Shown: one piece after another, positions 34,159 through 41,142 of the stretch
How the letters are laid out: the number at the start of each line of letters is the position of its first letter
Position numbering within the stretch: the stretch's first letter is position 1
Origin: a virus
Length of the DNA stretch: 64,000 bases
Reading direction: 5' to 3' (one strand)
Virus record (IMG/VR): IMGVR_UViG_3300012984_000001
Span: 11,695-75,694 of that record
Notes under the pieces: model-generated
Seen by the model: only the letters and a program-made list of their open reading frames with translations
Databases searched by the model: none
Told to the model about the DNA's origin: nothing
Made by a program: the position numbers and the translations under genes

Positions 34159-34425
34159 ATGAACAGAGATAAAGTAGCATTCCATGAATGGAGAGCGTTC
34201 AAAAAGCATTTCGGAATAAAAAATTCTGATATTGCCTTGGTTTTAGGCATTGACCGAAAGTCGGTCCAAAATGCAACAGCTCCATCATTTAAAGGTCATT
34301 TTCCTGCATGGGCTAAACTCGCTATTTGGGTTTGGAAGAAAACATCGGATAGTGAAACTCTGCTAAAAGCCGAAATAGTAAAATTAAAACAACAAATTAG
34401 TCAATATGATAGTAAAAACAATTAA
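34159..34425 (+). CDS. HTH-like protein
   Basis: NSDIALVLGIDRKSVQN. Confidence 0.6.
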   Translation: MNRDKVAFHEWRAFKKHFGIKNSDIALVLGIDRKSVQNATAPSFKGHFPAWAKLAIWVWKKTSDSETLLKAEIVKLKQQISQYDSKNN

Positions 34426-34732
34426 AATTCCGATTTATTGTGGAGAACTAACAATAATTCTCGATAAAGATTTAAAATATGTCGAGAAAAAATACAAAAC
34501 TACTTCATTGGAAAATTTTGGAGCAGTTACTTTAAAAGATAAGTCTAAATATAGACATTATGTTGTGGCTTTTTCAGACAGAAATCACTTAAGTAATATT
34601 GCACACGAAATAGTACACATTAAAAATCATATTTTCTTGGATTGTGCAATGGAATTAGACAGATATAATGATGAACCAGAAGCTTATTTAACAGGATGGT
34701 TATTCGATCAAATACATAATGTAATAAAATAA
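34406..34732 (+). CDS. Small HExxH metallopeptidase-like protein
   Basis: IAHEIVH...DEPEAYL. Confidence 0.7.
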   Translation: MIVKTIKIPIYCGELTIILDKDLKYVEKKYKTTSLENFGAVTLKDKSKYRHYVVAFSDRNHLSNIAHEIVHIKNHIFLDCAMELDRYNDEPEAYLTGWLFDQIHNVIK

Positions 34733-34744
34733 TTTACAATTTAC

Positions 34745-34775
34745 TTGCATAATTAAATATTATGACGTAATATTG
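34745..34775 (+). promoter_or_regulatory. Class A promoter driving the RNA operon
   Basis: TTG-N20-TAATATTG, core TGACGTAATATTG at 34763-34775. Confidence 0.7.
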
Positions 34776-34780
34776 TCTTA

Positions 34781-34965
34781 TTAATACTTGTCAAAATAAT
34801 AACAGCAACAAAGACGGTGAAATCCCGCATACAGTGATCGGCATAATGCTGTGCAAAAGTAAATTGTCGTGAGTAATTCCAAGATTACGATGTTTGTTTT
34901 TGAATCGGAGCGTAAAGAACATAGGAACCACTCCCGATTGCAACTTGGAAATGCAGAAGTATTGA
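34781..34965 (+). ncRNA. Unassigned multi-stem RNA with kissing loops
   Basis: Closing helix 34781-89/34957-65, internal hairpins, loop-loop pair TTCCAAG (34877-83)/CTTGGAA (34944-50). Confidence 0.55.
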
Positions 34966-34969
34966 TGTT

Positions 34970-35054
34970 AGATTTGTGGCTGAGCGATTGAAAGCAGTTG
35001 CGGGAAACGTGACGGGAAGTAGCTACCCCGAGGGTTCGAATCCCTCCAAATCTT
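34970..35054 (+). tRNA. Atypical class II (Ser-like) tRNA-like RNA, nominal anticodon GAA
   Basis: Acceptor AGATTTG/CAAATCT, T arm GAGGG-TTCGAAT-CCCTC, 16-nt variable arm; anticodon loop GGGAAAC lacks U33. Confidence 0.65.
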
Positions 35055-35055
35055 C

Positions 35056-35167
35056 GAGGTTATGTTTAGATGTTGTTAACGAGCCTTACAATTCGTAGTC
35101 CAACATAGTAGTTTAAAGCGGTCATCTACTTAAAATAATGACGAAAGTGTGAGTTAAGGCGTTCCTC
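35056..35167 (+). ncRNA. Unassigned pseudoknotted RNA between the two tRNAs
   Basis: GAGG/CCTC, ATGTTG/CAACAT, ACGAG/TTCGT, GTCAT/ATGAC; crossing pairs GCCTTA/TAAGGC and AGTAG/CTACT. Confidence 0.45.
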
Positions 35168-35205
35168 ATAGTGTAAAGTACTTATCAGCCAAATCTTTAC
35201 AAAAC

Positions 35206-35278
35206 TTCCACATAGCTCAGTCGGTAGAGCAAATGACTCATAATCATTAGGTCACAGGTTCAATCCCTGTTGTGGAAA
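35206..35278 (+). tRNA. tRNA with CAT anticodon (elongator Met or Ile2)
   Basis: Canonical cloverleaf TTCCACA/TGTGGAA, GCTC/GAGC, AATGA-CTCATAA-TCATT, ACAGG-TTCAATC-CCTGT; no initiator GGG/CCC; CCA not encoded. Confidence 0.92.
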
Positions 35279-35279
35279 C

Positions 35280-35577
35280 AATTAAGTTGTTAAGTTCTTT
35301 AATTTTTTGTTTGGACGGGAGTTCGACTCTCCCCGACTCCACGAATCGAGTCCGTGTAAAGTGTTCGATGGTTTGGCACACCGATATACAAAGTGCTATT
35401 TTTGGGGTCGCCTGGTTTTGACAGCAAAGCGAATTAGAAGAAATAGACTTAATTAAAAATAACTGCAAAAGTTATAAACCTTTTTGGAAACGAAGCAAAA
35501 CTTGCTGCGTAATCAACGAAATTTGTGATAGCGAAAATATCACTAAACAGCCGGAGGAGATTACTTCAAATCCGGTT
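35280..35577 (+). ncRNA. ssrA: Circularly permuted (two-piece) tmRNA
   Basis: Acceptor piece 35280-35341 (T arm GGGAG-TTCGACT-CTCCC, CGACTCC-A) precedes the 5' end GGGGTCG-CCTGGTTTTGAC at 35404; G3:U70 present; tag ORF 35465-35512 AKVINLFGNEAKLAA*. 3' end of the coding piece uncertain. Confidence 0.88.
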
Positions 35578-35606
35578 TAATTAAAAACAAAAAAACTACC
35601 AAAACT

Positions 35607-35807
35607 ATGAGTAAAACTTATTACAAATGTGAGGAATGCGGAAATAGTTTTCCGGAAGACAAATTAGTTATGACAGAAAAACTCGAACTAAACTGTTTGG
35701 AATGCATTGAAGAAGCCAAAAAGGACAAACGAATTCGAAACATGACTCTTTTGATGTGTGCTATAATTGCGGGTGCTCTTTTTTGGTTAATCTATAAATT
35801 TGTTTGA
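35607..35807 (+). CDS. Zn-ribbon membrane protein
   Basis: CxxC...CxxC plus C-terminal TM helix. Confidence 0.6.
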   Translation: MSKTYYKCEECGNSFPEDKLVMTEKLELNCLECIEEAKKDKRIRNMTLLMCAIIAGALFWLIYKFV

Positions 35808-35960
35808 AATCATGAAAAAACATAAAGAATATTTTTATGGAATCGGAATTTTCGCTCTCCATGTTTTATTTGGAATCGCTACAAAAGAAATTTGGATTTT
35901 CTCTATAAGCGGATTTTCGTTGGCGGTTATCACTACTTATGTACTTTGTAAATTAAAATA

Positions 35961-39184: not shown

Positions 39185-39517
39185 CTATTTTCCTGTCCAA
39201 ATCAAATCTCGGTAAAAAACCAAAAGATAAGGATTGCCATTTTGGGTCATTGCAGTAGCTTTAAATTTATCAAAAATAACCTCGCTTCCTACTTCTATAG
39301 TGTACCTGTTTTTTCCACCAAATATCCTTGAAAAAAAACTTTGAGGCTTTCTAGGGCACTCAGTTCCAATAGACCTAATTATTCCTCGTTTCTGCTTCTC
39401 GTTCGCATCAACTATACCACTAATATCAATTCCTGATTTAGTTTTGTTCTCGTGGAAAATTTCTTCAACAACAACTATTTGATTAAGCGCTTGTCCTTTG
39501 AATTTATTTGGTGTCAT
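39185..39517 (-). CDS. groES: Co-chaperonin GroES-like
   Basis: ALNQIVVV..KTKSGI...GIIRSIG...VGSEVIFDKF; adjacent to groEL; start ATG at 39517. Confidence 0.85.
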   Translation of the reverse strand: MTPNKFKGQALNQIVVVEEIFHENKTKSGIDISGIVDANEKQKRGIIRSIGTECPRKPQSFFSRIFGGKNRYTIEVGSEVIFDKFKATAMTQNGNPYLLVFYRDLIWTGK

Positions 39518-41051
39518 GAGCAAATCTTTTAAGTGTAACAACGTTGTTGGTTCTAAGTAAGTTATTTGAAGCGGATGCTGCGTTTACAAGAGCTGTTTTA
39601 ACTCCTTTCGCAGTATCAAGTATTCCGGCTTCGAACATATCTACTTCTTTATAGCCTTTCACATCGTACCCCATAGGATATTTGCCTAATTCTGGCACAG
39701 AAACTCCTGCGTTTGAATGTATTTTTAAGATTGGCGCTTGTATAACTGTTTTTGTTACTTCATCTATATCTAAATCTATAGCTGATAGTAAAGCGATTCC
39801 TCCTCCGGCAACAACTCCTCCATCTTTGGAAGCGCGTACAGCGCAACAAGCATCATCCACTCTAGCTATTTTTTCTTCAACTTCACTTGGAGTTACACCT
39901 CCAACGAAAATAGTAGAAATGCCACCAGATAATTTAGAGATTCTTTCACGAAGATAGTTTTTCTCACCTTCATTTGTTTGAAGTGTAATTTGAGAGTTTA
40001 ACTCATTAATTTTAGCGGTGACTTTTGTTTTGTCGAATTCTGGATTAAGCGTGATAACCGTGTCTTTTTTACCGATTTCAATTCTGTCGCAAGTTCCAAG
40101 ATAAACTGCTTCTTTTCCTTCGTAATTTGTTCTTGAAATACCTTCCAAAAGTTCACAATCTAAAATCAATGACAAATCTCGCATTGTTTCACGATTCTTT
40201 TTTCCTTGATATGGTGGTTTTATAATTGCGAATGGATATTTGTGTTTAATGACATTTTCTAAAATCATACTAGAAATGTCGTGAGACATATCTGATATTA
40301 TAACAATAGGACGCCCGTTGTGTGCAGCATAATCCAAGAAAGGCGTGATTTCATTATGTGTTTGAAAATTAATCAGTGAACATAAAACTAATGGATTGTC
40401 GAAGATTACGGATTGAGATTCCGGAACATTCACAAATCCTTCGTTTAAATATCCGGCATCAATTGGATTTCCGGCAATGTGTTTAATGAAAGTTTCGTCT
40501 GTAAAACTACGTTTGTGAGATACTATTCCGAATTCTCCTGACTTGATAAACGCTTCTTGGACAATTTTAGCTATTTCAGAATCTCCATGAGCAGAAGTTT
40601 TAGCAATATCGAACATTAATTTTTCATTTACAGGAACCGAAATGGAATCGATATATTCAGACACTTTTGATACAGATTCTTCAATTTTGTTTTTGATTTC
40701 AATTGAAGACGTTCCTTTTTTAAGTTCATCCAATGAATATTTGAAAAATGCCTGAGTCAAAACACATACTAGGGTAGTTCCATCCCCAACCACTTCAAAT
40801 TGTTTTTTAGAGGCTTCTTTTACTATTTCGCAAGCAATATGTTCGATGCTATTTTCCCAATAAAGATTATGTAATACATCGTGACCGTCTGCAGTTATAT
40901 TAGGTAATCCTCCTGTAGTTTCGAAAAGGACATTTTGTCCACGATACCCCATTGTGCTCGAAACTATGTCACAACACTTGTTTATCCCGTCAAGTAATTG
41001 TGATTTTGCATCTTCTCCACTGACTAGATGCCTTAAAATTGTGTTACTCAT
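39504..41051 (-). CDS. groEL: Chaperonin GroEL-like
   Basis: STMGYRGQNV, ITADG, GDGTT, ERISKLSGG, GVVAGGG, AGILD; start ATG at 41051. Confidence 0.95.
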   Translation of the reverse strand: MSNTILRHLVSGEDAKSQLLDGINKCCDIVSSTMGYRGQNVLFETTGGLPNITADGHDVLHNLYWENSIEHIACEIVKEASKKQFEVVGDGTTLVCVLTQAFFKYSLDELKKGTSSIEIKNKIEESVSKVSEYIDSISVPVNEKLMFDIAKTSAHGDSEIAKIVQEAFIKSGEFGIVSHKRSFTDETFIKHIAGNPIDAGYLNEGFVNVPESQSVIFDNPLVLCSLINFQTHNEITPFLDYAAHNGRPIVIISDMSHDISSMILENVIKHKYPFAIIKPPYQGKKNRETMRDLSLILDCELLEGISRTNYEGKEAVYLGTCDRIEIGKKDTVITLNPEFDKTKVTAKINELNSQITLQTNEGEKNYLRERISKLSGGISTIFVGGVTPSEVEEKIARVDDACCAVRASKDGGVVAGGGIALLSAIDLDIDEVTKTVIQAPILKIHSNAGVSVPELGKYPMGYDVKGYKEVDMFEAGILDTAKGVKTALVNAASASNNLLRTNNVVTLKRFAHDTK

Positions 41052-41103
41052 ATAATTAAATTTAATTTGATTAATAGAAAACAAAAGTACTAATTTTAAA
41101 AAA

Positions 41104-41142
41104 GACAACAAACATTTCTTGTTGTTTTAATTTATATCTTTG
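41104..41142 (+). promoter_or_regulatory. Class B (late) promoter; divergent groEL promoter adjacent
   Basis: GACAACAAACATTT ... TATCTTTG; on the - strand TACTTTTG at 41082-41089. Confidence 0.6.

Follow-up and report, generated by a model that had tools for sequence, protein, structure and literature searches.

A probable non-conserved 5′ leader, enclosed by a terminal stem, at the head of a phage tRNA/tmRNA island

What is the 185-nt stretch that separates a promoter-like box from the first tRNA-shaped gene of a phage RNA island? A preliminary description of this locus had read it (positions 34781–34965) as a compact, tertiary-folded noncoding RNA, closed by a helix between its two ends and drawn together by a 7-bp kiss between two hairpin loops. 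The window that we analysed, 64,000 nt in all, comprises bases 11695–75694 of a 75,694-bp IMG/VR phage record with direct terminal repeats (G000); coordinates below are window positions unless another record is named. The large terminase of G000 is 57% identical to terminases of Flavobacterium ‘elemo’ podophages, with Cellulophaga phages among the other matches, and G000 is therefore taken to be a phage of Flavobacteriia; its probable source run is labelled as a soil metagenome. The genome also encodes a GroEL-like chaperonin (39504–41111, − strand; phrog_5725, E=7e-92). The RNA island itself consists of 870 nt of noncoding DNA between a 108-aa gene (p108) and a 66-aa gene (p66), and its features are collected in Table 1.

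Table 1 Features of the RNA island of G000 and its borders, in window coordinates
Feature	Position	Strand	Remarks
p108 (108 aa)	34406–34732		Upstream border of the RNA island
Promoter-like box ATGACGTAATATTGTC	34762–34777	+	Exact or near-exact copies in G000, G031 and G030
Other G000 copies of the box	62931–62916; about 28709	−; −	G000 positions 74624 and 40403, respectively
Probable 5′ leader of the RNA-island transcript	34781–34969	+	The 185-nt stretch (34781–34965) plus 4 nt to the tRNA-like 5′ end
Closing helix, 5′ strand	34781–34789	+	9 bp with 34957–34965, one of them G-U
Interior of leader, 167 nt, lineage-specific	34790–34956	+	No homologue in any relative; absent in G031
Hairpin A	34865–34892		8 bp, three of them G-U; TTCCAAG in loop at 34877–34883
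Interior helix	34903–34910 / 34931–34939		8 bp plus one bulge
Hairpin B (TGCA/TGCA)	34939–34955		CTTGGAA in loop at 34944–34950
Closing helix, 3′ strand	34957–34965	+	Ends 4 nt 5′ of the tRNA-like gene
Ser-type class II tRNA-like gene, 86 nt	34970–35055	+	ARAGORN; pairing kept relative to G031
Spacer, 150 nt	35056–35205		Between tRNA-like gene and tRNA-Met
tRNA-Met	35206–35279		
Permuted tmRNA	from 35293 onward		
Terminal hairpin of the island	35549–35593		Conserved in G000, G031 and G033
p66 (66 aa)	35607–35807		Downstream border of the RNA island

Promoter box and tRNA-like gene

The limits of the stretch are set by two elements that recur in its nearest syntenic relative (G031), namely the 16-nt promoter-like box and the tRNA-like gene. 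Counting exact and near-exact copies, G000 and G031 contain three boxes each and a further record (G030) contains one; in both G000 and G031 the third copy departs from the box by 1–2 mismatches. One of the G031 copies, identical at all 16 nt, stands before the counterpart of the G000 tRNA-like gene, and the two others have flanks closely similar to those of the other G000 copies. Two other copies of the box precede a strong hairpin that begins 7–10 nt after the predicted start and is succeeded by a T run, all within 40 nt. Within the box, TAATATTG comes close to TAnnTTTG, the −7 motif of Bacteroidota, and it is from this Bacteroidota-type motif that transcription is predicted to start at about 34781. 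Conservation of the box beyond the −7 motif suggests a candidate phage-specific promoter class. A scan of 34300–35900 revealed no terminator-like site and hence none in or after the leader, so that nothing resembling a terminator separates the box from the first tRNA-shaped gene, the interval in which 34781–34969 sits. The earlier placement of the stretch behind a promoter, at the head of the RNA operon, is thus upheld by a box recurrent in G000 and G031, with the start itself being a predicted one.

The tRNA-like gene that follows was detected by ARAGORN and is not listed by the Rfam tRNA model. Although it differs at most stem positions from its G031 counterpart (L095:1494–1580 in the relative), 9 of 23 pairs are compensatory and 100% of cells are paired, compared to 0–2 both-side changes in a sliding partner control. 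The gene is certainly real, and it would be the first conserved product of the island. Its anticodon loop is non-canonical in both phages, and the two loops are unlike each other (7-nt GGGAAAC in G000, 8-nt CGACCATA in G031), with G in place of U33 in both. Furthermore, many other phages have true tRNA-Ser genes whose D-arm matches that of the tRNA-like gene, but the tRNA-Ser of G000 itself does not match. A non-decoding Ser-type tRNA-like RNA that is kept while islands turn over is a more interesting object than the leader in front of it.

Pairing within the stretch and chance expectation

All of the strings from which the preliminary description had built its fold are present where it had placed them, and the closing helix is as described. 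The interior helices fare less evenly. Their strings are all there, but the strands overlap, with 34891–34892 and 34939 each used twice; the AU arm pairs only with bulges, and the GCATACAG/CTGTGC helix musters only 5 pairs rather than 6–8. The CGG/CCG hairpin amounts to 3 bp. The + strand contains no ORF of more than 40 aa within the stretch and none that is convincing, in agreement with the absence of an ORF noted before. Scans with Rfam 15 gave nothing for 34781–34965 at gathering thresholds and nothing relevant at E≤10, whether 1.2 kb or the stretch alone was submitted; the sole match to the stretch alone was a yeast IRES (E=4.3, 16.7 bits vs. a gathering score of 70). The Rfam scan that had been proposed as a check therefore matched no known family, small ribozymes and Y RNA-like RNAs included, and the reported mismatch to RNase P, SRP, 6S and riboswitches stands. 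With 37.8% GC, the stretch ranks at the 85th percentile of genome windows and comes close to the tmRNA.

The minimum free energy (MFE) of the stretch, −33.1 kcal/mol, is indistinct from that of dinucleotide shuffles (−34.2 ± 3.7 kcal/mol; z=+0.30), and when the stretch is divided the 5′ half is less structured than its shuffles (z=+1.9) and the 3′ half neutral (z=−0.2). The fold proposed in the preliminary description reaches −14.9 kcal/mol and thus falls far short of the MFE. Of the seven helices in that fold, two are essentially absent from the ensemble of the stretch folded alone (pairing probability of 0.003 for the AU arm and 0.03 for the GCAUACAG helix), and four others do occur (closing helix 0.93, hairpin A 0.73, AAUCGGAG helix 0.64, hairpin B 0.54). 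The fold is fragile: the pairing probability of the closing helix is 0.44–0.56 in longer context and 0.00 when the start is shifted 3 nt downstream, a shift upon which the other helices collapse as well. As controls, the tRNA-Met and tmRNA gave z-scores of −2.7 and −2.3, and the tRNA-like gene only about −0.2; since this last gene covaries, a neutral z-score cannot exclude a real fold, and energy alone does not decide the matter.

To assess the kiss, all pairs of non-overlapping hairpins (stems of at least 4 bp, loops of 4–14 nt) were compared, and the longest run of perfect loop–loop complementarity was scored. The loop segments TTCCAAG and CTTGGAA are indeed exact complements, as had been described, but a loop–loop complement of at least 7 nt arises in 9.3% of 1000 dinucleotide shuffles and in 20.5% of 409 G000 windows of the same size, and the kiss is accordingly unremarkable in shuffles and genome windows alike. 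A kissing-loop fold of this kind is a pattern often given by chance in sequence of such composition. The compact, tertiary-folded kissing-loop RNA of the preliminary description finds no support in thermodynamic, statistical or comparative tests.

The pairing of the two ends is a different case. Because the ends of the leader are set by the promoter box and the 5′ end of the tRNA-like gene, independently of any fold, we applied an end-pairing test, which asked for a helix of at least 9 bp between the first 14 and the last 16 nt of the stretch. Such a helix appeared in 0.64% of 5000 shuffles and in 0.83% of 10,787 G000 windows, and among the features tested in the stretch only this end-to-end helix exceeds chance. 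In G031, the 30-nt leader is a single 13-bp hairpin with a 3-nt loop that ends 1 nt before the tRNA-like gene; among G031 windows, a helix of at least 13 bp was seen in 2 of 14,957 and one of at least 10 bp in 0.25%. The two helices (9 bp in G000, 13 bp in G031) begin at the same offset from the promoter box, in a comparison that spans two genomes and a predicted start, and have no sequence in common. Closure by an end-to-end helix, the one structural element of the preliminary description that proved rarer than chance, thus has an architectural counterpart in G031. It is suggestive, for two genomes and a predicted start, that a 5′-terminal stem belongs to the leader in both phages and, likewise, that in G000 this stem encloses 167 extra nucleotides.

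Occurrence in relatives and turnover of island modules

The genome of G031 (74.8 kb, with terminal repeats) encodes a terminase 89% identical to that of G000, and its proteins in the neighbourhood of the island are 40–75% identical. Its gene order runs from p88 through a different gene to the promoter box, tRNA-like gene, spacer, terminal hairpin, p66 and p53 onward, without tRNA-Met and tmRNA. The distance from box to tRNA-like gene is 30 nt in G031 vs. 189 nt in G000. The 167-nt interior is absent from G031, where the flanking promoter box and tRNA-like gene are conserved, and the interior therefore falls outside the conserved core of the island. This comparison clearly detects real RNAs on either side of the interior. 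A MAFFT alignment from promoter to tRNA-like gene misplaced the promoter and was left out.

The wider search for relatives of the interior ended without a homologue in 41 related phage records taken whole, in 87 further phage loci and in pattern scans of collections of viral, metagenome and genome sequence. A blastn search in its ‘distant’ setting of 50,697 phage records matched only the tRNA-Met and not the stretch. The 34 relatives of p108 in viral contigs lie in neighbourhoods that are not syntenic with G000, most of them without a tRNA there, and the stretch is in none of these loci; BLAST of 29 whole records of p108 relatives matched the promoter part only. A terminase search yielded 43 loci, and BLAST over 18 terminase-related records never found the stretch; the same 18 records served as a positive control, with the promoter, tRNA-like gene, tRNA-Met, tmRNA and terminal hairpin each found in various relatives. 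Across 12 whole related genomes, nhmmer --max recovered the tRNA-like gene in G031 at 4e-6 and returned no match to the stretch at E≤10, neither a second copy in G000 nor any copy in relatives, and restricting the search to the relatives' islands still gave no match. A covariance model of the proposed structure, run over 0.98 Mb of related DNA, found no homologue; its best foreign match (E=0.054) fell on an ORF end with a terminator hairpin.

Scans by pattern were similarly empty with respect to the stretch. Exact patterns from the stretch, the tRNA-like gene and the spacer gave 0 matches in viral contigs, the spacer pattern gave 0 matches in metagenome contigs, and scans of viral and metagenome contigs anchored on p66 gave no relatives. 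The tmRNA pattern led to one unrelated phage with a standard tmRNA, and the D-arm pattern of the tRNA-like gene to 87 loci, mostly true tRNA-Ser genes, none of which holds the stretch. A host-derived origin of the interior was probed by a single 20-mer scan of genome contigs, and the lone 21-mer that this returned, in a Duodenibacillus MAG, had no extension and was set aside as chance. Two further candidates were rejected: a by-eye likeness of GATGTTTG...TTTG to spacers of G032 and G041 was not significant (E≥2), and an 11-mer common to the stretch and G033 (TGAAATCCCGC), which by eye lies within an apparent decayed tmRNA tail, was judged a coincidence.

Among public sequencing runs, the stretch is covered only by the likely source run, no RNA run is listed as carrying it, and 34744–35031 is uncovered in the others, a distribution that weighs neither for nor against any reading. 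Parts of the spacer and tmRNA, either identical or at about 87% identity, are present in contigs from three other runs (35033–35183, 35370–35517 and 35055–35168), one of these runs being a wastewater library labelled RNA-Seq, and other public runs also hold short pieces of the tRNA-Met. From the pieces in these three runs it follows that G000 has relatives beyond the source sample, and that their assembly is feasible. Collecting homologues, a check put forward in the preliminary description, thus produced none in the collections searched, and the interior fails on the conservation and covariation that the preliminary description had itself named in its refuting condition. The proteins around the island are only about 50% identical even in the closest relative and sampling is poor, so that noncoding DNA would be saturated and a missing homologue is weak evidence.

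The islands of other relatives differ in content from that of G000. The terminal hairpin recurs in G031 (L095:1700–1745) and G033 (L092:1545–1505, − strand) with its loop conserved too, following the pattern CCGG..GAGATnAC.TCAA..CCGG and then TTTAATT; in neither of these genomes is it preceded by an intact tmRNA, and it may be more than a terminator. In G033 (L092:1680–1497, − strand) there is only an apparent tmRNA remnant, TTTTTGTCGGACGG without a T arm, followed by a degenerate tag end. A noncoding piece of ~120 nt directly 3′ of the tRNA-like gene of G031 (L095:1581–1700) has a clearly conserved counterpart where the G041 contig begins (L090:1–125), and shows no likeness to the 150-nt spacer of G000 and no Rfam match. 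Genes of tRNA shape measuring 96–118 nt occur in G032 (L089:1984–2091 and 2136–2253, − strand) and G041 (L090:441–536); they carry long insertions within or close to the anticodon or the variable region and have Rfam tRNA scores of 53, 23 and 31.5 bits. G032 and G041 also have in common a spacer of ~140 nt between tRNA-shaped genes (CAACCAAyAAAGAAAGCG ... TGACAATATACGGAAAGACGTAGG), and in G041 an ORF of about 170 codons (L090:841–1350) lies just upstream of a permuted tmRNA. Modules are thus gained, lost and decayed quickly in such islands.

Competing explanations and comparison with known systems

On balance, the evidence tilts toward reading 34781–34965 as a non-conserved 5′ leader of the phage tRNA/tmRNA transcript, with the terminal stem as its only part supported from outside. 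Direct support comes from the conserved box and tRNA-like gene, from the absence of the interior in G031 and from a terminal helix that is rare in both phages. One primary transcript would start at about 34781, ~4 nt after the box, and would carry in turn the leader, the tRNA-like gene, the 150-nt spacer, the tRNA-Met, the permuted tmRNA and the conserved terminal hairpin. With the two terminal 9-nt segments of the stretch able to pair, this transcript would begin with a 5′-terminal stem, formed once the nascent 5′ end has met 34957–34965. Cleavage by RNase P at 34969/34970 would free the tRNA-like RNA, with the leader either discarded or persisting for a time. The stem may shield the 5′ end from 5′-end-dependent decay, or it may present the RNase P site or otherwise aid processing, and the 167-nt interior would be a lineage-specific insertion or decayed DNA with no demonstrated function. 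Two observations run contrary to the leader reading, namely the occurrence of four of the proposed helices in the MFE ensemble and a GC content like that of the tmRNA; moreover, a 190-nt leader enclosed by a stem is the expected look of a stable RNA. If the leader reading is true, the stretch is an ordinary pre-tRNA leader and no longer a candidate for a new class of RNA.

In a rival reading, the stretch would be a lineage-specific stable noncoding RNA of ~189 nt, released by RNase P and closed by its 5′–3′ helix, whose interior hairpins, possibly together with the loop pairing, bind a host or phage factor. The terminal helix that is rarer than chance, the four helices that occur in the ensemble of the stretch folded alone (0.54–0.93), and the slightly raised GC content all fit such an RNA, and the conserved noncoding pieces in the islands of relatives (the G031/G041 and G032/G041 spacers) make new RNAs in such islands plausible. 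We nevertheless consider it unlikely, given that neither homologue nor covariation emerged anywhere in the searches, that the stretch is absent from the nearest relative, that its MFE is no lower than in shuffles (z=+0.30, and +1.9 when the 5′ half is taken separately), that the kiss is not above chance and that the fold collapses on a 3-nt shift of the start. A more specific version, in which a genuine stable RNA of ~190 nt has a helix expanded from the G031 leader hairpin and an interior (possibly including the loop pairing) that functions during infection of Flavobacteriia, appears to us improbable. To much the same degree we doubt that the stretch is a MITE-like mobile or foreign insertion, in which the inverted repeats TTAATACTT and the complement of AAGTATTGA mimic a helix, or else a decayed RNA gene. 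Presence in G000 with absence at the same site in G031, inverted ends and the gain and loss of modules in the islands (no tRNA-Met or tmRNA in G031, the apparent tmRNA remnant in G033, other tRNA-like genes in G032 and G041) would all suit an insertion. Yet the stretch is single-copy in G000 and missing from relatives, and with the patterns used, scans of viral, metagenome and genome sequence uncovered no copy apart from one chance 21-mer. A clear target-site duplication is also lacking (flanks TCTTA and TGTTA), as is any likeness to tRNA, tmRNA or the spacers of relatives. The hairpin at the same offset from the box in G031 further argues that end pairing is a feature of the leader and not an imported repeat. 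Finally, a leader peptide could be drawn from an open frame that is present, with 33 codons from an ATG at 34890 lying inside a 40-codon GTG frame (34869–34991); we regard this as very improbable, as the GTG frame runs into the covarying tRNA-like gene, has no counterpart in G031 and is followed by no terminator.

How, then, would a leader of this kind relate to RNAs already known from tRNA operons? The stable RNAs C and D of phage T4 (species 1 and 2) are small RNAs encoded in a tRNA cluster, co-transcribed with tRNAs and released by tRNA processing, and they are of the kind of tRNA-associated phage RNA to which the preliminary description had likened the stretch. The likeness of the G000 stretch to them is one of position only: RNAs C and D are observed stable species, whereas the stretch is known from sequence alone and in no relative. 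Theta ribozymes, which are minimal HDV-like ribozymes, adjoin phage tRNAs and have been postulated to process tRNA 3′ trailers (PMC10879173). Like these, the stretch would be a small structured RNA tied to tRNA genes in Bacteroidota phages; unlike them, it lies 5′ of the tRNA-like gene and heads the transcript, and it matched no ribozyme family in Rfam.

Closer parallels lie in the 5′ regions of transcripts. Bacterial and phage tRNA operon transcripts carry 5′ leaders that are removed by RNase P (see also PMC8925977). In common with such leaders, the stretch is noncoding, lies between a promoter and the first tRNA-shaped gene and is variable among relatives (189 vs. 30 nt). It departs from them in being unusually long, in the pairing of its ends and in that the next RNA is a non-decoding tRNA-like one rather than a normal tRNA. 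Stem-loops at the very 5′ end, such as that of the E. coli ompA 5′ UTR, stabilise transcripts against 5′-end-dependent decay. The stem of the phage leader differs from ompA-type stems in that the ‘loop’ in G000 measures 167 nt and the stem is carried by an RNA operon, not an mRNA. Resembling ompA-type stems, the G000 and G031 helices both open at what is predicted to be the first transcribed nucleotide, and a terminal stem flush with the predicted start in two phages, ahead of the same odd tRNA-like RNA, offers a small clue to how RNA-island transcripts may be stabilised or processed in phages of Flavobacteriia.
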